From a virus, in the UHGV virus genome UHGV-0142786: a stretch of DNA of 10,260 nt. One strand, given 5' to 3'. The position numbers were made by a program, and so were the translations under genes. Shown one piece after another: positions 1 through 9,063 of this stretch; positions within the stretch are counted from its first letter, which is position 1, and each line of letters begins with the position of its first letter. The notes under the pieces are model-generated. The model was not told where the DNA came from. It made no database searches and saw only the letters and a program-made list of their open reading frames with translations.

Positions 1-217
1 TTAAGGCGAGTTTTCGAATCTTAAGTTTATCTTTCTGTTTCTGCTCCTCTCGTCGCCGTTTCTTCTCTGCTGCTTTTTCCGCTTTTTTTCGCTGTTTACT
101 TTGTAGTTCGAGTGCTAACTGAGTTCCGTGTTCCGGGCAGCACCACCACTGATTTGAGAATGCCGGGTGAAACCATTCCTTGCATATTTTGCATTTCCTT
201 CGCGCTGGTTTAGCCAT
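1..217 (-). CDS. ninG: NinG/Rap recombination endonuclease, N-terminal part; gene runs off the left edge of the window
   Basis: Minus-strand ATG at 217..215 overlaps the upstream stop (TAATG). Translation [72 protein letters not shown] matches my recollection of lambda NinG/Rap N-terminus. Not in the ORF track because it is truncated. Confidence 0.75.
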
Positions 218-939
218 TAAGCAGCCTCCCCTGTTACTTTCAGCATTCCGTTATCGAGCAGCTTTCTGGTCAGCCACTGTTGACCACGCCCGGTGATTTT
301 TGTGGTGAACGATATCTGTATTCCGTGATTTGTGTTGACCGCTGTTTCTTTCACTGTGAAATAGCCGCGATCCATATATTCCTGCATTGGCACATTGCGC
401 CGGGAACCTGAAGCAATAAGGATTTTGTGATCGCGCATCCACGCAAACAGTTTGTTTGGACCAATACCGACAACCTTTGCAAAGTTTCCAATCAAAATTC
501 CGCTGGCCTCGCCAACTCGATCGGCAAACTCAACTTTAGGTGCGGCAATTGCGAGCTGGTTTTCCAGTTGCATTTTCTGCTCAGCAAGATCAGCAGCAAG
601 GCGCAACGCTTCTGGTAGCGTTTTGGGGATATTAACCGCAGCTTCTTCAAGCTCTCGCCAGCGGTCAACAAGGCGAGCGGTGAATTCCGGCGACAACTGG
701 GCAACAACGACAATACTGTCTCGCTTACCTTGTTCGCCTTCGAAGACGTAATGCTCGTACTGAACATTGAACCCTAAGTTATTGATTCTTTCGGAAACCT
801 CAATTTGAGGAAGCCGGATAACACCATTTTTAGCCAGCGTTTCGATGGTACGTTTCACATTGTCATGACGCTTACCCACCAACTCAGCGATTTCAATGCT
901 TGTCATTTTGATGGCATTGCCATTTATTAACTCATTCAT
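217..939 (-). CDS. Phage regulatory protein, Rha family N-terminal domain plus KilA-C/AntA-type antirepressor C-terminal domain (Roi/Ant-like)
   Basis: 240-aa ORF. N-terminal motif [24 protein letters not shown] is typical of the Rha domain; C-terminal [24 protein letters not shown]...GYF is typical of KilA-C. Start ATGAATGA overlaps the ninF stop. Confidence 0.8.
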
Positions 940-1108
940 CGTCTTCTTCCTCGTACATTGAGCTATTCGGATCGCTCATCAGTTCTGCGCAGCAGTGCTC
1001 ACACACGTGAACTTCCAGCACATGCAGCTTTTGACCGCAGTTAGCGCACGTTAAAGCCCGCTCGACGCTTTCTTTCTGGTATTGAAGGGATTGGGATGGG
1101 CTAAGCAT
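932..1108 (-). CDS. ninF: NinF-like small zinc-binding protein (58 aa)
   Basis: Hand translation [58 protein letters not shown] with CxxC...HxxC...C cysteines; matches my recollection of lambda NinF. Below the ORF-track size cutoff. Start overlaps the stop of the upstream ORF. Confidence 0.65.
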   Translation of the reverse strand: MLSPSQSLQYQKESVERALTCANCGQKLHVLEVHVCEHCCAELMSDPNSSMYEEEDDE

Positions 1109-1466
1109 TATTGGCGTCCTGCATCATGAGAAAGACAATCATGGCGGCGCGGAGTGGGTTTTCATCTTGAGTCATATGATATGGGGTACTATCACTGCCA
1201 ACTTTTCTATGCGCTGCCTTCCATAATCCATTTTCTGGCGCTGGAATAATGCCAATTCTGTTCTCTACGATAATCGGCTCTGCGTCTGATGGGCTTTTAC
1301 AGTAATCAACCGTTTTTATTGCATAACCAGTTTCGTCATCCCACTCAACACCAACGATTGATGTTCCCAACTTTGCGATTTCGCAATCTTCGGGAGCAAA
1401 TCCACAGCAAATTGCCACTCGCTTGTTAATTTCAAAATCACTTAACTGTGAATAATCCATTGTCAT
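1101..1466 (-). CDS. Hypothetical nin-region protein (about 120 aa) between ninE and ninF, in the position of P22 NinX
   Basis: ORF 1101..1502 in the track begins in an overlap with ninE. Likely start is the ATG at 1466 (ATGA overlap with the ninE stop) or the ATG at 1460, which has better spacing to a GAGGAA Shine-Dalgarno. No recognised catalytic motif. Confidence 0.55.
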
Positions 1467-1639
1467 TTCCTCGCACGATGTCTTAACCACCGGATATCCC
1501 ACAGGTGAGCCGTGTAGTTGAAGGTTTTTACGTCAGATTCTTTTGGGATTGGCTTGGGTTTATTTCTGGTGCGTTTCGTTGGAAGGTATTTGCAGTTTTC
1601 GCAGATTATGTCGGTGATACTTCGTCGCTGTCTCGCCAC
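1463..1639 (-). CDS. ninE: NinE-like small protein (58 aa), probable GTG start
   Basis: Hand translation (M)[57 protein letters not shown] resembles my recollection of lambda NinE. Start codon uncertain: GTG at 1639 preceded by AAGGAGG. Overlaps the ninD 3' end in another frame; stop TGA overlaps the next start. Confidence 0.5.
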
Positions 1640-1779
1640 ACGTCCTCCTTTTCCTGCGGTAGTGGTAACACCCCTGTTGGTGTTCTTTCACACCGGAGAC
1701 ACCATCGATTCCAGTAAGGTTGATTTGGTCGGAAGCGGTTATCTTCTTTGCATTCACCGCACCGATAACATCGCATCAT
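1606..1779 (-). CDS. ninD: NinD-like small zinc-ribbon protein (57 aa)
   Basis: Hand translation [57 protein letters not shown] with two CxxC pairs. Length equals lambda NinD (orf57) and the ATGA overlap with the ninC stop is as in lambda. Confidence 0.6.
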
Positions 1780-2648
1780 GCAGCTTCCCTCCCGAAGTCG
1801 AAATCAAGCTGCCCTCCAAATATTTCGCATGACTCAGAACAAGAGCCGGTATCGAATCTTTTAGCTCGTACCATGTCCTGATACAGGGCTTGATAATCAT
1901 TTTCTGAATACATTTTCGCGATACCGTCCAGCGACATTCTTCCTCGGTACATAATCTCCTTTGGCGTTTCCCGATGTCCGTCACGCACATGGGATCCCGT
2001 GATGACCTCATTAAAAACACGCTGCAATCCCTCCTCATCTTTGCAGGCAAGTCCGATTTTTTGCGTTGATTTTTTAATGCAGAATATGCAGTTACCGAGA
2101 TGTTCCGGTATTTGCAAATCGAATGGTTGTTGCTTCCACCATGCGAGGATATCTTCCTTCTCAAAGTCTGACAGTTCAGCAAGATATCTGATTCCAGGCT
2201 TTGGCTTTAGCCGCTTCGGTTCATCAGCTCTGATGCCAATCCACGTGGTGTAATTCCCTCGCCCGAAATGGTCATCACAGTATTTGGTGAAGGGAACGAG
2301 TTTTAATCTGTCAGTGCAGAACGCGCCGCCGACGTATGGAGTGCCATATTTCTTTACCATATCGATAAATGGCTTCAGAACAGGCATTCGCGTCTGAATA
2401 TCCTTTGGTTCCCATACCGTATAACCATTTGGCTGTCCAAGCTCCGGGTTGATATCAACCTGCAATACGGTGAGCGGTATATCCCAGAACTTCACAACTT
2501 CCCTGACAAACCGATATGTCATTGGATGTTCACAACCTGTATCCATGAAAACGTAATACACGTCTTCACCTGCCTGTCGCTTTTGCTCCATTAGCCAGAG
2601 TAAATATGCTGACGTCCTGCCACCTGAGAAACTAACGACATTTATCAT
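1776..2648 (-). CDS. ninC: NinC, PAPS-reductase-like family protein (290 aa)
   Basis: Track ORF 1776..2666. True start taken as [17 protein letters not shown] (ATG 2648..2646), which overlaps the HNH stop as [12 protein letters not shown] resembles the PAPS-reductase/ATP-PPase P-loop. Near-identical to my recollection of lambda NinC. Confidence 0.85.
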
Positions 2649-3247
2649 GCAGCCCTGTCTCCCCATCTTGCTTTCATTGTTTCATTTGCAAATCGCCAGA
2701 ATCTTCCTTTGTGATATGAGCTTTCGCCATTACAGCAACGACTAATTGACGAACTATCAAATCCTTCTCTGACAGCATCCATAGCTGCTTCATAATAAAC
2801 CTCCTCACCAGTTTTCATGTCAGTAGAAATAACAGCTTTACTGGCAGGATGATCACCGCTAAATTTACCTAGCGATATAGGTATTCTTCCATTTTGTTTA
2901 TATCCGTGCTTTGAGTTTTCAGAATGTGATACCCATTCAAGGTTTTCAGCCCTATTGTCATCTCTTTGCCCATTTTTGTGATTAACTACCAAGCCATCAC
3001 AGAACCCTGTACAGAATGCTTTCGCAACTATCCTGTGGGCGCTGTATTTCTTACCGTATACCTTTATTTGAAGATATCCTGTCGACTTGCACTTGAATGG
3101 TTTTACGCTAGTGCCATTAATTATTTTCTTATATGGCCTCTGTCTGGTTGATGTTACTGTAACTTCCCTCGTAATAGACCTGAAATTTCCTTTATTGCTA
3201 ACCTGATAAAATGGAATCCCTTCGATATCTACCCAAACCTCAATCAT
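2645..3247 (-). CDS. HNH homing endonuclease (NUMOD4 + HNH_3 type), inserted at the 3' end of ninB
   Basis: 200-aa ORF. N-terminal EVWVDIEGIPFYQVSNKGNFRS resembles NUMOD4; HKNGQRDDNRAENLEWVSHSENSKHG is an HNH_3 motif. Own GGAGG Shine-Dalgarno. The last 9 residues KARWGDRAA equal the lambda NinB C-terminus. Confidence 0.85.
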   Translation of the reverse strand: MIEVWVDIEGIPFYQVSNKGNFRSITREVTVTSTRQRPYKKIINGTSVKPFKCKSTGYLQIKVYGKKYSAHRIVAKAFCTGFCDGLVVNHKNGQRDDNRAENLEWVSHSENSKHGYKQNGRIPISLGKFSGDHPASKAVISTDMKTGEEVYYEAAMDAVREGFDSSSISRCCNGESSYHKGRFWRFANETMKARWGDRAA

Positions 3248-3656
3248 AATTCCTCCATTCGCTAAGATGAATTGAGTTCATGGCACAATATGCTTCTATG
3301 TAGTCCATTATTTCGGATATTTTTTTTACAGATAGAGTCGCCGTACTCTCTCTGATGTTTATTAGCTCACCTTCTAACCCTGATATAATCTCAGGGTGCT
3401 GGTTGGTTGCAATTTGCCAACCAGAAACGAATAACCCCTTCCAAAACTCAATATTTCTTTCTTTTCCATGATATGTGGCCTTCTTACTTATTTCAGATAG
3501 CATCGCGTGAAGGCGTGCATTTTGCCGAATGCTGCGGTTGCGTTCCTGAATGGTTACTACGATTGGTTTGGTTGGGTCTGGAAGAATTTGCTGCACCGCG
3601 TGAATAGCGTTTTGCTGATGTGCTGGAGATCGAATTTCAAAGGTTAGTTTTTTCAT
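3240..3656 (-). CDS. ninB: NinB (Orf-family recombination mediator), mosaic and C-terminally altered
   Basis: Track ORF 3240..3674 starts at a TTG; the ATG at 3656 gives MKKLTFEIRSPAHQQNAIHAVQQILPDPTKPIVVTIQERNRS, identical to the lambda NinB N-terminus as I recall it. The rest is divergent but collinear, and it ends ...LSEWRNYD instead of ...[14 protein letters not shown]. Confidence 0.8.
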   Translation of the reverse strand: MKKLTFEIRSPAHQQNAIHAVQQILPDPTKPIVVTIQERNRSIRQNARLHAMLSEISKKATYHGKERNIEFWKGLFVSGWQIATNQHPEIISGLEGELINIRESTATLSVKKISEIMDYIEAYCAMNSIHLSEWRNYD

Positions 3657-3671
3657 GACTTCCCTCTCCCC

Positions 3672-3704
3672 CAAATAAAAAGGCCTGCGATTACCAGCAG
3701 GCCT
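3672..3704 (-). terminator. Rho-independent terminator on the minus strand between the replication genes and the nin region (tR2 analogue)
   Basis: Stem AGGCCTGC (3681-3688) / GCAGGCCT (3697-3704) with an 8-nt loop; on the minus strand it is followed by TTTTATTTG (rc of 3672-3680). Lies 30 nt downstream of the primase-helicase stop. Confidence 0.65.
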
Positions 3705-3733
3705 GTTATTAGCTCAGTGATGTAGATGGTCAT

Positions 3734-5614
3734 TTAATACTCCGTCACGTTTTCCTGTCGCCACGCCTCGTCATATTCCGATTTCGGCATATTGGCGATG
3801 TAGCTATATGGCGATCCTGATTCAAGTTGCAGGAACTGGTGCGATTGCTCATCAAGGAACAACGGGACGCCACCTTCCCAACCTTCGCCGTTACGTTGTT
3901 TTTCAAGCATCAAAACAGATGCCGGAGACGCCAGTACCTGTTCGTCCTTCTCTGACATCTTTTCACCACTCTGAACTCTCTGTAACGCTCTCTCGCGAGC
4001 CTTGTTACGCCAGATGATGAAAAGGTTGTCTGTCAGGTCTGTTATCGCTCCAGAGCCTTTTACGTCCATTTTCCCGGTTGGTTTTTCTTCGCTGTCTCCT
4101 TTTCTGGAGTGAGTAACGAGAATGACGTGGGAGTTTGTTTTGTTTTTGAAGTCACAAATCGAGTCAACAAATGCTTTCTGCCCGTTATAGTCATCGTCAC
4201 CTATGCCGCATTTCATCAGGCTGTCGATGATGAATAACTGGATCCCGTATCGGCGGCGAGCGTAGTCGAATATTTCGATCAGCCTGTCGGCTTTCGCCGT
4301 TCCGGTCAGGCCAAACACCCAAAGTCTTTCGTCATAAAATTTAAATGCAGAGTCAATTTCCAGCACTGGCGGCATCTTGCAGCACGTCGCCTGACGGGTA
4401 AGGCGCTTAAGGAGAATACCAGGCTTCAGCTCAAGTGACGCGATGCACGTCTTCACACCCTGACGCATTGCCTCAAGTGCCATATGCCCGACAACCTCCG
4501 TTTTTCCGTGACCGTTCACACCATTGACCAGCGTCAACTCTGCCTCACGGAACTGGAATTTATCTGCCAGAGATTCCCACGGTGGATTAAACAGATACTG
4601 CTGCTTGCCGTAGAAAGCGTTGATAGTGTCCTGGTAAAACTCTCGCGCGCTGTAGAGTTCTTCAGGGTCGAAGTAGGATGCCGTGCCGATGTACTGCCAG
4701 ATTTCATCCTCGGTAACACCGTTCATCAGGCATTCGTTGATGTCTTTGTACGGCAGAGTAACAAGACGGCAACGATGTTCACCGAGTCGGCTTGCGATTT
4801 CCCTTGCGGCTTCACGACCAACATCATCAACGTCCATCGAGATGAATATTTCCTCAAACCTGTCGAGATTGTGATACTCAAACTCAATCCACTGCTGCTT
4901 AGCGCCTTTCCCGCCACCAAACGGCACGGATAACGCCGAGATGCCGTATTGCGCATAGCTCATACAATCAATTTCGCCTTCGCAAAGTACAACCGCCCTC
5001 ACGCCAGCGTCCAGAGCCTGCCATCCGAACAGACAAGGTTCGCAATCACCTTCTGCCATAATGACTTTCTTCCCGTCCGGGCGCTCAGTGCTGATTCGCT
5101 TGACCTGCAACAACTCACCATCGCGTTTGTACGGAATCACCAGAGCATCCAGTTCCCGCTCTCCATTCCACACCTTGCCGCTGACAACCTCGTAGCGCTT
5201 TACGACTTCTGGCGATATGCCACGCGATTGCAGGTACTCAAGATGGGATTCTGTTCTGGTAACGTAGCGGGCGATTTTCTTGCGATCAGGTCTGGAGAAT
5301 TTCTTCTCACGTTTGGCATCGAAATGGTGATCGTCATCCTTGATACCGAGAAATGCTTTCGCTTCCTGCATAGCCTGATGCAGGTTAATTCCACGACATG
5401 CCATCCACAAATCAAGCATGTCACCGCCGTCTCCCTCAGCGAAATCAGCCCATTTTTTCTTTCCGCTAAGGTTGACCTTAAGGCTGTTTCCCTTGTCACC
5501 GTTGACGTTACCGGCAACCCACTCATGCCCCTCTTTCTTGCCGTTTGGCAACAGGTGCGGAGCCACCCTGTCAACCTGCGCCCAAAGCAGGTCGCTAAGT
5601 TCACTTGGCCTCAT
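3734..5614 (-). CDS. Bifunctional DNA primase/helicase (TOPRIM domain plus RecA-fold DnaB/T7-gp4-like helicase), 626 aa
   Basis: TOPRIM-like acidic motifs VVLCEGEIDCMSYAQ and ISMDVDDVG; Walker A GVNGHGKTE; Walker B-like LFIIDSL. Occupies the lambda P position downstream of the O-like gene. GAGGG Shine-Dalgarno 5 nt upstream. Confidence 0.8.
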   Translation of the reverse strand: MRPSELSDLLWAQVDRVAPHLLPNGKKEGHEWVAGNVNGDKGNSLKVNLSGKKKWADFAEGDGGDMLDLWMACRGINLHQAMQEAKAFLGIKDDDHHFDAKREKKFSRPDRKKIARYVTRTESHLEYLQSRGISPEVVKRYEVVSGKVWNGERELDALVIPYKRDGELLQVKRISTERPDGKKVIMAEGDCEPCLFGWQALDAGVRAVVLCEGEIDCMSYAQYGISALSVPFGGGKGAKQQWIEFEYHNLDRFEEIFISMDVDDVGREAAREIASRLGEHRCRLVTLPYKDINECLMNGVTEDEIWQYIGTASYFDPEELYSAREFYQDTINAFYGKQQYLFNPPWESLADKFQFREAELTLVNGVNGHGKTEVVGHMALEAMRQGVKTCIASLELKPGILLKRLTRQATCCKMPPVLEIDSAFKFYDERLWVFGLTGTAKADRLIEIFDYARRRYGIQLFIIDSLMKCGIGDDDYNGQKAFVDSICDFKNKTNSHVILVTHSRKGDSEEKPTGKMDVKGSGAITDLTDNLFIIWRNKARERALQRVQSGEKMSEKDEQVLASPASVLMLEKQRNGEGWEGGVPLFLDEQSHQFLQLESGSPYSYIANMPKSEYDEAWRQENVTEY

Positions 5615-5718
5615 GATTCCCTCAGATTGAGATTTTTAAACCAGAAATCGACAAACGAAATACTTAACCAGCCGTGGTTATAACCAGCGACCAGTAGCGA
5701 TTTGATTTTTGATTTCAT
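5611..5718 (-). CDS. Candidate small ORF (35 aa) between the O-like gene and the primase-helicase
   Basis: Hand translation MKSKIKSLLVAGYNHGWLSISFVDFWFKNLNLRES. AGGTGA Shine-Dalgarno upstream; stop TGA overlaps the primase ATG (ATGA). Too short for the ORF track; no homology recognised. Confidence 0.3.
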   Translation of the reverse strand: MKSKIKSLLVAGYNHGWLSISFVDFWFKNLNLRES

Positions 5719-5721
5719 GGT

Positions 5722-6582
5722 TCACCTGTCGAAAAACACGTAGCCAGTTTTCGATACGGTGATTGCGGATGATGGTTTGGATTGTGGTTGAATGGTTTCT
5801 GGCTTTTCGTCGTTCCAGCGCTGACCGTTCAGGTAGCTCGATGGTAATAACCTGTCGAATCCGAACTGCTTACCATTCCTGCATGCGATGTCTTCTGCCA
5901 GCATCGTGGCAAACTCGCTTGCCGTACCCCTGGTAGTTTTACGCCATTCCCTGAACTGTGTTCTGAATGCCGAAGCTGCGTTTTTCTTCCCGGCCTTCCG
6001 CATGCCTGCACACCAGAATATTTCCTCGAATGCCTTGTCGGTTTCTTCGTGACGGTCAGGTGATTTTTCACACTCCGTCCGAACACTTTCGGACATAGTG
6101 TTTTTATTATTTCTTTTTTCTTTTGTAATAGTTTCTTTTGTGTGTCCCTGTTTTGGTGACAGCGCTGTCACCGTTTTGGTGACACTTTTTGTCACCAATG
6201 CAGTGACATTATCACCAGAGTAGTGACACCCTTCGATTTGCCATTCCTCGATGTTCTTGTTAGGCCCGATTTGCTGGCCTTCGCGAAGGATAACCTTCAT
6301 CGCGATAAGCTCATTCTTGGCCTTGTTTACCTTCTGTCTTGGCAGCCTGGTAATTTGAGCTAACTGACTATCAGAGATGCGATCCATCTTTTTACCGTAG
6401 CCGTATGTTTTACGGCATATGGCGTGGGCAACCTTGCTCTGATTTTTCGTTAAATCTGCGCCGATAAGCTCTTCATACAGGGCATTTGCAAGACGGGTAT
6501 AACCATCTTCAACTTCTGCCACACGACGCTCCACAGGCCGTTGTGAAGGCCTTAAATGTGTTACGGTTGCAAGATTACTCAT
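5722..6582 (-). CDS. Replication initiator with lambda-O-like N-terminal iteron-binding domain and a non-lambda C-terminal domain
   Basis: 286-aa [94 protein letters not shown] aligns with my recollection of the lambda O N-terminal domain. Iterons and an AT-rich tract lie inside the gene, as in ori-lambda. Confidence 0.85.
6093..6230. repeat. Candidate replication origin inside the O-like gene: four GTGACA-type iterons plus an adjacent AT-rich tract
   Basis: Perfect 18-bp palindrome GGTGACAGCGCTGTCACC (6155-6172); GGTGACACTTTTTGTCACC (6178-6196); GTGACATTATCACC (6204-6216); GTGACAC (6223-6229). AT-rich tract at about 6093-6150. In gene orientation: iterons first, then AT-rich, as in ori-lambda. 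Confidence 0.65.
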
Positions 6583-6721
6583 GACCTTTATCCTTCTGCA
6601 TCAGCTTCACTTTTTCCAACTCAGCCCGGAATCGACCAGGCTGCCTGAAGCTGGACAGGAAGCGATCACGTAGTATGTGTTTGTGAATTTTGTCCTGGTA
6701 AGGACTGAGTTGTTTTGTCAT
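6575..6721 (-). CDS. Candidate small basic ORF (48 aa) between cII and the O-like gene
   Basis: Hand translation [48 protein letters not shown]. Strong AGGAG Shine-Dalgarno 5 nt upstream of ATG 6721; 3' end overlaps the O-like start. Lambda has no gene in this position. Confidence 0.4.
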
Positions 6722-6753
6722 AATGACTCCTGTTGATAGATCCAGTAATTCCC

Positions 6754-7050
6754 TCAGAATTGCATATCAATTTGCTTAAAATCCTCGGTGGCGGCCGGGG
6801 ATTTTTTCTTTGTGAGTCCATCAAGCGCATACTTAAAAGCCCTGCTAATCGGACTGATGTCTGATGCCATTCCGAAAGCACACAAGACCGAAGCAATAAA
6901 TCTCCAGTCCGTTCTGCTTATCTTCGATTCATGACAGCCAATCATCTTTGCCAGACCGCGCTGGGTAAGCGTTGACAGGTTGATGAGTAAATCAGTTTCA
7001 GCGCGATCAATTTCTCGCTGTGTTGGCTTGCTGTAACTTGTTTGTGCCAT
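6754..7050 (-). CDS. cII: CII-like transcriptional activator (98 aa)
   Basis: C-terminus [19 protein letters not shown] against lambda CII TNKKRPAATERSEQIQMEF; central [11 protein letters not shown] against lambda SQISRWKRDW. Lies between cro and the replication genes. Confidence 0.8.
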
Positions 7051-7135
7051 TTCTTAATATTTCCAATAGTGAATAGTTAGTTGAAAGGTATGCGTGGAAA
7101 CGCATATGGCCTTAGTTGGTCAGATATCTTGGGAC

Positions 7136-7181
7136 TCGCTTTTCAGCGACGTAGGACGAATGTCCGTTATTACAAAGAGCG
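7136..7181 (-). promoter_or_regulatory. nutR candidate: boxA-like CGCTCTTTG and boxB-like hairpin UCGCUGAAAAGCGA, 23 nt apart
   Basis: On the minus strand, boxA at 7181..7173 starts 11 nt after the cro stop; boxB hairpin at 7149..7136. Same architecture and spacing as the nutL candidate upstream of N. Confidence 0.55.
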
Positions 7182-7191
7182 GCTCCGCTTA

Positions 7192-7407
7192 TTAAGCAGC
7201 TTTGTGCTCCGGCGGGAACACATCATCAAGACTTACTTTTGCGCCTAACTTGTTTAGACACGCAACAAGAGCACGGCATGTTTTAAGGTCTGGGAAGCGA
7301 CGACCAGATTCCCAATGTCCGATAGCTCCCTGTGTGCATCCAACTGCCTTAGCAAGTGTTGTTTGAGAGATATTCAGTGACTCTCGATATTTTCGTAGGT
7401 TGCTCAT
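7192..7407 (-). CDS. cro: Cro-like HTH repressor (71 aa)
   Basis: Small HTH protein ([23 protein letters not shown]) transcribed divergently from cI, with a GGAGG Shine-Dalgarno. Confidence 0.8.
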
Positions 7408-7524
7408 ATGCCCTCCATAGTAACCACAAATAAAAAATACAATATGTACTCATTAAACACAAGCAAAAAATACACATTGTGCATGGATGGTTCCAGTACA
7501 AAGCGTAATAATAAGGACATGAAA
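7408..7524. promoter_or_regulatory. Divergent cro/cI control region (OR with PR and PRM)
   Basis: 117-bp gap between the divergent cro and cI starts. Two similar sites: AAAAAATACAATATGTAC (7433-7450) and AAAAAATACACATTGTGC (7465-7482), the second holding the palindrome CACATTGTG. Exact -10/-35 boxes not resolved. Confidence 0.55.
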
Positions 7525-8178
7525 ATGAAATGGTATGAACTGGCTAGATCCAGAATGAAAGAGCTCGGCATAACTCAAGAGAAGTTAGCCGAAGAGCTAG
7601 GTATGACGCAGGGTGGAATTGGACACTGGTTGCGCGGATCTCGTCATCCATCTCTTAGTGATATTGGTGTGGTGTTTAAATACCTTGGTATTGATAACAT
7701 ATCATTCAACCACGACGGGACATTTTCACCTGTTGGCGAATACTCATCGGCCCCAGTTAAAAAACAATATGAGTACCCTGTTTTTTCTCATGTTCAGGCT
7801 GGGATGTTCTCTCCAGAACTCAGAACCTTTACCAAAGGCGATGCGGAGAGATTGGTAAGCACAACCAAAAAAGCCAGTGACTCTGCATTCTGGCTTGAGG
7901 TTGAAGGTAACTCAATGACCGCACCAACAGGTTCCAAACCTAGTTTTCCTGACGGGATGTTAATTCTGGTTGACCCAGAGCAAGCTGTTGAGCCCGGCGA
8001 TTTCTGCATAGCCAGACTTGGTGGTGATGAGTTTACCTTCAAGAAACTGATCAGGGATAGCGGTCAGGTGTTTCTACAGCCACTAAACCCACAATACCCA
8101 ATGATCCCATGCAATGAGAGTTGTTCCGTTGTGGGGAAAGTTATCGCTAGTCAGTGGCCTGAAGAGACGTTTGGGTAG
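7525..8178 (+). CDS. cI: CI prophage repressor: HTH N-terminal domain plus LexA/S24-type autocleavage C-terminal domain
   Basis: C-terminal domain from [14 protein letters not shown] to WPEETFG is essentially identical to lambda CI as I recall it; the N-terminal domain is unrelated to lambda. Track ORF from 7408 is over-extended into the cro start. ATG 7525 has an AAGGA Shine-Dalgarno at 7 nt; ATG 7519 is the alternative. Confidence 0.85.
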
Positions 8179-8366: not shown

Positions 8367-8588
8367 ATGAAAAAATCTGCAAAGCACTTTTTCAGCGCTA
8401 TGGGCTCTATCCTTGACCTTTGCCCAGCAGGTAGCTACAGCGAGTATCATTCAAATGCTACAGACATCGACCTTATCAACTCAGATTGGGTTAAGGTAGG
8501 TAGTTACGTTAGAGACGCTGTAACTGATAATGAGCAGAAAAAAATCCCAAAGAAAGCTTCAAACCGCCGCCCCGAGAAATCTTGTTAA
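8367..8588 (+). CDS. Hypothetical small protein (73 aa as read), first ORF of the rex-position cassette
   Basis: AGGA Shine-Dalgarno 8 nt upstream of ATG 8367. No homology recognised. The 3' end overlaps the next ORF by 59 nt across an A7 run. Confidence 0.5.
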   Translation: MKKSAKHFFSAMGSILDLCPAGSYSEYHSNATDIDLINSDWVKVGSYVRDAVTDNEQKKIPKKASNRRPEKSC

Positions 8589-9063
8589 CCAACCAACTCC
8601 GTTAGGGCGAGTTCAAGACGGTAAAACCGAACTGCTTATAAATGAGGTCGCAAAGAACCCTCAAGTTCTTGAGCGCCTCATGGACAGGCCAGATCTAGCT
8701 GGCATCATGATGCAGGTGACTCACACTAGATCAGGGCCACTCCCAGACGCTGACGAATTAGCTAAGTACGAAAGAATATCTCCAGGATTCGCTCGCGAAA
8801 TAATGGACATGGCTAAGGCTGAGCAAAAACACAGACACGAGTATTACAAAGCAGGACAGAGGGGAGCAATTTGGCGAGATCGACTCGGACAGATCTTTGC
8901 GATGACTTCTGTCTTTGTTTTCGCAGGAATTGCTTACAAGATGATTCAGCACGAGGCTTATGGCTGGGCTACCGGGCTTCTTGGTGCTGAGTTAGTTGCT
9001 TTAACTAGCGTGTTTATAATTGGAAGAAGAGACAAACCGAATCCAAAGCAAACTAAAAAATGA
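8530..9063 (+). CDS. Hypothetical membrane protein with two C-terminal transmembrane helices, possibly DUF2335-like
   Basis: 177-aa ORF. Motif LPDADELAKYERISPGFAREIMDMAKAEQKHRHEY followed by hydrophobic IFAMTSVFVFAGIAY and WATGLLGAELVALTSVFIIG. The DUF2335 assignment is from memory and unverified. No clear Shine-Dalgarno at 8530. Confidence 0.6.
   Translation: MSRKKSQRKLQTAAPRNLVNQPTPLGRVQDGKTELLINEVAKNPQVLERLMDRPDLAGIMMQVTHTRSGPLPDADELAKYERISPGFAREIMDMAKAEQKHRHEYYKAGQRGAIWRDRLGQIFAMTSVFVFAGIAYKMIQHEAYGWATGLLGAELVALTSVFIIGRRDKPNPKQTKK

Follow-up and report, generated by a model that had tools for sequence, protein, structure and literature searches.

The gene between ninF and ninG of a lambdoid Escherichia coli phage is almost certainly roi and carries a candidate Roi operator within its own coding sequence

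What is the gene that lies between ninF and ninG in the virus genome UHGV-0142786, at a place where phage lambda has none, and how might its product act? The stretch analysed here (the window, 10,260 nucleotides (nt) in full) comes from a lambdoid (pro)phage of E. coli and spans its immunity and replication genes together with the nin region, and an initial annotation made from its letters had described the open reading frame (ORF) at 217-939 as an inserted antirepressor-like gene. Judged by its sequence, this ORF is almost certainly roi, a nin-region gene first described in phage HK022. Within its codons lies a 25-bp dyad-symmetric element that is under selection at the nucleic-acid level, on top of coding, and that may serve as the operator of the encoded protein. 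Taken as a whole, the explanation we favour, with confidence somewhat above even, is that the gene is roi and that its product would regulate itself through this dyad and host integration host factor (IHF). The gene, its domains and its two neighbours are as follows.

217..939, minus strand: roi coding sequence (240 amino acids), an ORF call with an ATG start and a TAA stop
643..906, minus strand: Phage_pRha N-terminal domain (residues 12-99), Pfam PF09669
829-900, minus strand: putative helix-turn-helix (HTH), residues 14-37, from Pfam and weak profile matches
256..564, minus strand: ANT/KilAC C-terminal domain (residues 126-228), Pfam PF03374
932..1108, minus strand: ninF, the upstream neighbour of roi, Pfam NinF PF05810 (1.8e-12)
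1..217 (ORF 2-217), minus strand: 5' part of ninG (first 72 codons, cut by the window end), the downstream neighbour of roi, Pfam NinG PF05766 (4e-18)

The architecture proposed initially, a 240-residue protein with Rha-N and KilA-C domains set between NinF and NinG, stands. Hidden Markov model searches for Phage_pRha and KilAC/ANT, the check that had been suggested for it, gave significant matches for both: PF09669 at E 6.3e-09 (36.7 bits, above the gathering cut-off of 29.9, over profile positions 1-91 of 91) and PF03374 at E 7.7e-33 (113.5 bits against 25.3). PHROG 63, ‘anti-repressor Ant’, also matches (1e-99). The ORF and its domain matches are real and not due to chance. From these matches, Roi is a predicted two-domain protein, with an N-terminal Rha-type (winged) HTH domain and a C-terminal KilAC domain. 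In a profile built from 28 N-domains, positions 2-34 (Roi residues 12-44) align weakly with Lrp/AsnC-type winged HTH proteins (E 0.07; all winged-HTH matches of this profile fall at E 0.07-0.1), and a PDB sequence search with Roi returned no solved-structure match.

The overlapping stop and start codons reported at both junctions are also as described. The ninF stop and roi start overlap in ATGAATGA at 932-939 (...GAC GAT GAA TGA / ATG AAT GAG), and the roi stop and ninG start overlap in TAATG at 215-219. Read along the minus strand, which the initial annotation had not specified, the sequence runs ...GACGATGAATGAGTT... across the start-side junction and ...GCTGCTTAATGGCT... across the stop-side junction. 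In lambda, as had been stated, ninF (42269-42439) overlaps ninG (42429-43043) directly, with no gene in between.

The comparison with Roi offered initially was correct, and the gene goes beyond being Roi-like. The window protein and ORF48 (‘DNA-binding protein’) of Escherichia phage N7 are 100% identical; identity is 98.8% with the product of the CUS-3 gene annotated roi, 94.2% with H-19B Roi and, by tblastn, 88.4% with the founding member, HK022 Roi, over 240/241 residues. In all five phages (the window, HK022, H-19B, CUS-3 and N7) the gene occupies a nin-region position between the replication genes and Q. Many Stx and P22-like phages also have roi at this place. The order ninF-roi-ninG is already annotated in H-19B and many Shiga toxin (Stx) phages, while HK022, N7 and CUS-3 have ninF-roi-ybcO-rusA. 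‘Inserted’ is therefore accurate as a statement of difference from lambda, and we reject it as a claim of novelty: roi is an already known and very common gene at its standard locus.

How common is apparent from three counts. The 1.7-kb region around roi has matches in 432 phage records, 1110 out of 5426 complete E. coli genomes have DNA matches to roi (in 971 the match covers at least 80% of the gene length), and the 90%-identity protein cluster that contains the window protein has 2355 member sequences. In prophage Gally of LF82, the region from ninE to roi matches the window at 98.2%, and the gene has been treated there merely as one of five annotated regulators (PMC9928086). A 92% identical Roi was also encountered on a 3.9-kb contig (JAEZCC010000011.1, locus L013) of a metagenome-assembled genome labelled Bacillota bacterium; this contig most probably comes from an enterobacterial phage and was binned in error.

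The alleles of roi have a mosaic structure. Hardly any variation is seen in residues 1-20 and 67-98, residues 21-66 form an allele-variable segment with 26 versions among 114 close homologues, the linker (residues 99-135) comes in two main types, and the KilAC part is almost invariant, as measured by low column entropy. From residue 111 onward the window protein is 100% identical to HK022 Roi, and its sequence reads as that of a recombinant, with an H-19B-type N-cassette joined to an HK022-type linker and KilAC domain. A further mosaic junction falls exactly at the roi stop and ninG start (window ~210-219): the closest relatives of the gene (N7, CUS-3 and most E. coli prophage matches) have ybcO (DUF1364) and rusA downstream, with megablast matches beginning at position 210, and the ninG segment of the window (1-216) matches Stx and H-19B-type phages.

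Within the allele-variable segment lie the elements on which our interpretation turns.

792..816, no strand: 25-bp dyad-symmetric element, candidate Roi operator, inside roi, centred on gene nt 136, codons 42-50
798-810: inner perfect palindrome CCTCAAaTTGAGG, codons P44-Q45-I46-E47
775..787, minus strand: IHF consensus AATCAATAACTTA (pattern WATCAANNNNTTR) on the coding strand at gene nt 153-165, downstream of the palindrome by 10 nt

To place the dyad in a wider family, relatives were gathered from one-genome-per-species contigs, viral contigs and earlier loci, giving 292 loci with 146 distinct N-domain DNA segments. From these, 54 representatives below 80% amino acid identity were retained, from genera that include Acinetobacter, Xenorhabdus, Pseudomonas, Shewanella, Xanthomonas and Sphingobium, and dyad centres were compared with the recognition helix as the anchor. 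At the focal centre, the 54 representatives have a mean of 5.28 complementary pairs out of 6, against a mean of 1.50 and a maximum of 3.24 for 183 other centres. Perfect 6+1+6 palindromes occur at the focal centre in 30 of the 54 and only 3 times at all other centres together; random synonymous codons for the same amino acids would produce 0.6-0.7 (nominal P ~1e-44, uncorrected for relatedness).

Codon choice follows the same pattern. The 17 representatives that read P-Q-(I/F)-E at these residues use CCT in 17/17, CAA in 16/17, ATT in 14 with TTT in the remaining 3, and GAG in 17/17, whereas the same amino acids elsewhere in those 17 genes are encoded by mixed codons. Symmetry extends to 12 positions per side, which gives the 25 bp. 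On alignment A3, 82.5% of cells are paired, compared with 58.7% in shuffles (a level reached by 0/500) and 30-46% when partners are slid, and 144 cells are changed on both sides of the dyad, compared with 52 in shuffles. Because both pairing and synonymous codon use exceed expectation, the dyad is under selection at the nucleic-acid level in addition to selection on the protein.

Palindromes in the same register but of other sequence occur in other alleles. HK022 has CTGCAtTGCAG (HK022 34785-34795) centred on the identical nucleotide, where the window has CCTCAAaTTGAGG; other E. coli alleles have CCTGCAtTGCAGG and TCCCCCAaTGGGGGA, and CCCCCAaTGGGGG is, like CCTGCAtTGCAGG, a dyad sequence that differs from that of the window. 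Each phage has one copy only: the palindrome is found exactly once in the window, once in the whole N7 genome and once in the whole HK022 genome, every time inside roi, and a search of all three for other Roi targets found no further copy with <2 mismatches. A 13-nt inverted repeat (667-679 / 722-734), which was also considered, was dropped as not above chance (p ~0.29).

The IHF consensus beside the dyad is the sole match to WATCAANNNNTTR in the 10.26-kb window, and the chance of at least one match in shuffled roi is ~0.03. HK022 roi has an IHF consensus at the same gene position (nt 153-165) amid different surrounding codons. The motif occurs at its fixed offset in 11/12 representatives of a ‘(K/R)INNLG’ subclass and in 0/42 others, and it needs Ile to be encoded by ATC and Leu by TTA.

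Does the protein vary together with the dyad? Half-sites fall into discrete classes according to the residues at positions 29-31 of the recognition helix.

Helix residues K-R-T: half-site CCTCAA, 16/19
Helix residues K-Q-S: half-site CCCCCA, 9/10
Helix residues K-R-A: half-site CCTCCA, 3/4 (the fourth has CCTCCG)
Helix residues K-R-S: half-site CCGCCA, 3/4
Helix residues K/R-V/I-S/A/T: half-site mostly CCTGCA

The window itself has R-T at residues 30-31 and CCTCAA half-sites. Mutual information between residues 30-31 and half-site nucleotides 3-5 is 2.03 bits, against 0.80 when permuted (p < 2e-4). The type of segment that directly follows the dyad correlates with neither the helix residues nor the half-site (p = 0.84 and 0.50), so helix and half-site stay matched while the neighbouring sequence freely reassorts.

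The N-domain also travels. Roi-type N-domains are fused to KilAC, to KilA-N or to C-terminal regions that are not recognised, and their distribution, as far as sequence goes, fits a shuffled, portable DNA-binding module. Fusions other than to KilAC were noted in Xenorhabdus lircayensis (L057) and at L035, L038, L047, L061 and other loci; one of these has KilA-N and several have no Pfam match.

These observations may be combined into a broader proposal, which we put forward tentatively and to which we assign a somewhat less than even chance. Roi-type Rha N-domains would be self-contained regulator and operator cassettes, with a 25-bp operator in codons 42-50 just downstream of the recognition helix. 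Discrete operator classes would co-vary with helix residues 30-31 across Gamma-, Beta- and Alphaproteobacteria, amino acids 44-47 would be largely set by the operator, and one subclass would add an IHF site 10 nt away.

What is said of Roi in HK022 agrees with a role of this kind. In work from 1996, HK022 Roi was reportedly an HTH DNA-binding protein whose target lies in its own gene, close to an IHF site; its binding there is said to be stabilised by IHF. In IHF mutants, wild-type Roi reportedly keeps the phage from growing lytically, and Roi point mutants that allow growth again are said to bind the site differently. More recent papers go no further than to link HK022 Roi to lytic growth or to its inhibition (PMC3430580, PMC4587872). 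A literature search for functional work on Roi after 1996 yielded annotation-level mentions only.

On the mechanism that we favour, Roi would be a sequence-specific DNA-binding protein, probably a dimer, that binds through its N-terminal HTH, and its single strong site in the phage genome would be the 25-bp dyad at 792-816 in its own coding sequence. That this dyad is Roi's own operator is, on sequence evidence, probable. Host IHF at 775-787 would bend the DNA and stabilise the Roi complex, and the resulting nucleoprotein complex would limit transcription through roi, a form of autoregulation. Where IHF is absent, control would fail and excess or mis-acting Roi would block lytic growth, as in the HK022 phenotype. 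This autoregulatory logic is the more speculative part of the model and seems to us slightly less likely than not. The variable N-terminal cassette would decide which dyad is recognised, and the near-invariant KilAC domain would be the effector part.

Several points weigh against this interpretation. The dyad statistics treat the representatives as independent, without correction for phylogeny, and the helix and the dyad are ~40 nt apart, so that co-inheritance contributes to their association. AlphaFold2 predictions on 29 close homologues gave a mean predicted local distance difference test (pLDDT) score of 36.5 and were unusable, and the HTH assignment rests on Pfam and weak profile matches. 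The operator role of the dyad in the window allele is a prediction from sequence, and as far as sequence goes the regulatory effect could be either autorepression or a block of Q expression further downstream. In alleles of the 933W/Xuzhou21 type the IHF consensus is lacking and the inner palindrome is a degenerate one, and the dyad might instead form a hairpin in RNA, the window element folding at -9.8 kcal/mol. In L006 (phiXuzhou21-Stx2a) and similar ‘KVENKQ’ alleles (L033, L051, L058, L062) the outer arms, CAACTT...AAGTTG, are still perfectly complementary; these alleles may be bound in another way, or their site may be in decay.

Before the alternatives are considered, the transcriptional setting of roi has to be described, together with the features of the window on which it depends.

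7408-8178, plus strand: LexA-like S24 self-cleaving repressor
8530-9063, plus strand: DUF2335 predicted membrane protein, 177 amino acids
9425-9769, plus strand: N antiterminator, PF25694 (1.5e-32)
3681..3704, minus strand: tR2-like intrinsic terminator with an 8-bp stem and 6 GC pairs, arms AGGCCTGC...GCAGGCCT, then the T-run TTTTATTT

On the minus strand, genes for Cro, CII, a DUF2740 protein, an O-type initiator and a 626-residue toprim/DnaB-like primase-helicase precede the nin string, which reads ninB, HNH, ninC-like (PAPS-reductase), ninE, ninX, ninF, roi and ninG, with most junctions overlapping. The strong terminator-like hairpin (3704-3681) occupies the place of lambda tR2, with the primase-helicase gene on one side and ninB on the other. 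A consensus scan for promoter-like sequences over 1-7500 gave 8 matches, against 9.8 expected from shuffles, with none convincing near roi, although a weak internal promoter could escape such a scan; an independent roi promoter was set aside as unlikely. Because a terminator-like hairpin lies upstream, the N gene is present and no above-chance promoter is nearby, it is plausible that roi is a delayed-early, N-dependent gene transcribed from pR. The suggestion that it would be expressed only after induction was thus a sound one, given also that roi lies on the same strand as the cro-cII-O-primase genes. From the overlapping codons, roi would be translationally coupled to ninF and ninG.

Could the dyad act as RNA rather than DNA? 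In that case it would form a hairpin in the nin-region transcript, with a role in processing, pausing or translation control, and would not be a protein operator. Compensatory changes do keep pairing over 12 positions, but G-U pairs are rare among the paired cells (alignment A3), the fold z-score is only -1.65, and the arms come in a few discrete sequences that track the recognition-helix residues. HK022 Roi, moreover, reportedly binds DNA within its own gene, and we regard the hairpin as improbable. Scarcely better placed, and also unlikely, is a role for the Roi-IHF complex on the dyad as a roadblock to pR transcription toward ninG and Q, which would make it a timer of late genes and not a controller of roi. 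The dyad, ~130 nt inside roi, is on the one transcript to reach Q and is the sole copy in the phage genome, all of which would suit a roadblock. Yet IHF is said to stabilise Roi binding while its absence reportedly makes Roi inhibitory, and a pure roadblock predicts the opposite.

The remaining alternatives concern the protein. The initial annotation had assigned its architecture to antirepressors or lytic-growth regulators; the domains are indeed present, but ‘antirepressor’ is a label taken over from P1 Ant1 by way of its KilAC domain. As a true antirepressor, Roi would inactivate a CI-type repressor through its KilAC domain or as a whole protein, and a co-resident prophage would be the more plausible source of the repressor targeted, because roi would be expressed only after its own repressor is gone. 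The biochemistry reported for HK022 Roi is DNA binding. The repressor of the window is a LexA-like S24 self-cleaving protein that needs no antirepressor, and roi, which overlaps ninF and ninG within the pR-operon string, shows no sign of a separate control unit, unlike P22 ant, which is under Mnt/Arc, and unlike the separate P22-type ant gene that is also present in phage N7. P1 Ant1 and Roi have the KilAC domain in common, and phi11 gp07 and P1 KilA are cited as antirepressors in a preprint (bioRxiv 10.1101/2024.01.05.574328), but for Roi the name has been transferred by homology, and the authors of the AriS study call the exact function of these domains unclear (PMC9043618). No report of Roi as an antirepressor, or of its binding a repressor, was found in the literature searched, and this role appears to us to be quite unlikely.

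Rather less unlikely, though still doubtful, is that Roi is a dual regulator like AriS of Listeria, with an N-domain that handles phage DNA and a KilAC domain that acts on a conserved host target, the host effect being its chief function and the reason why the protein inhibits growth when it is over-made. The ANT/KilAC domain of AriS alone suppresses the SOS response, probably through RecA, and pRha+KilAC proteins, the architecture of the window protein, are listed as AriS-like variants (PMC9043618). CreP, a KilAC-only toxin, blocks cell division and causes filamentation (bioRxiv 10.1101/2024.01.05.574328), so that RecA/SOS and cell division are the candidate host targets. Also in favour are the near invariance of KilAC in roi alleles while the N-part is a swapped cassette, and the fusion of the N-domain elsewhere to other C-domains such as KilA-N. 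However, this evidence comes by analogy from distant Gram-positive or Acinetobacter homologues. An AriS-like role for KilAC is compatible with autoregulation through the dyad and IHF, and does not exclude it.

How does the window gene compare with its better-known relatives? HK022 Roi has the same Rha-HTH and KilAC architecture and the same place right after ninF; it differs in the cassette of residues 21-66 (N-half ~75% identity), and has ybcO/rusA downstream where the window has ninG. In H-19B and in Stx phages such as Stx2 phage 86, PA28 and 933W-like phages, the ninF-roi-ninG order and the overlapping junctions are the same, and H-19B Roi (94% identity) shares with the window its N-terminal cassette, palindrome and IHF site and differs in the linker (residues 99-135). 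The 933W/Xuzhou21-type Roi, in contrast, is 82% identical and follows an extra P22AR-type ant gene, not ninF.

More distantly, Rha of phi80 and P22 orf201 belong to the same N-domain family (Phage_pRha), which is named after them, and block growth in IHF-deficient hosts (PMC4936722), but they are described as late-operon genes, and they are compared with Roi here on N-domain family and reported phenotype alone. AriS of Listeria phage phi10403S likewise pairs a modular N-terminal regulatory domain with an ANT/KilAC domain at the C terminus, although its N-domain is AntA/AntB and distant in sequence. P1 Ant1/KilA and CreP share the KilAC domain with Roi and have other N-domains or none; the antirepression and cell-division block reported for them are theirs.

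Other parts of the window also depart from the lambda arrangement. An HNH endonuclease gene (2645-3247, minus strand, 200 amino acids, with NUMOD4 and I-HmuI-like modules) lies between ninB and the NinC-like PAPS-reductase gene and overlaps both. It resembles a homing-endonuclease-type insertion, and lambda, N7 and CUS-3 lack it there. In the place of lambda rexAB, between the repressor gene and N, the plus strand at 8367-9063 has two ORFs, one of 73 amino acids without a Pfam match and the other encoding the 177-residue DUF2335 protein; the pair may be a moron or exclusion cassette. In the replication module (3734-5614, minus strand), the O-type initiator is accompanied by the 626-residue fused toprim/DnaB-like primase-helicase, which replaces the P-type loader of lambda.

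What, then, does the finding mean? By itself it is ordinary, as it re-identifies a named gene that roughly one in five complete E. coli genomes carries, as do many Stx-converting phages. Yet in the phages that govern the release of Shiga toxin, roi lies directly upstream of Q. For this reason the module formed by the dyad and the IHF consensus is useful, as it offers a precise, synonymously mutable target for testing Roi function, and the natural pairs of helix and half-site offer a test set for how HTH domains of the Rha family read DNA. The one part that may be new is the family-wide self-operator with its helix and half-site code. If true, it would provide a readable recognition code for an uncharacterised family of phage HTH domains, and would explain how autoregulation is kept when the module is shuffled onto different C-terminal effectors (KilAC, KilA-N and others).

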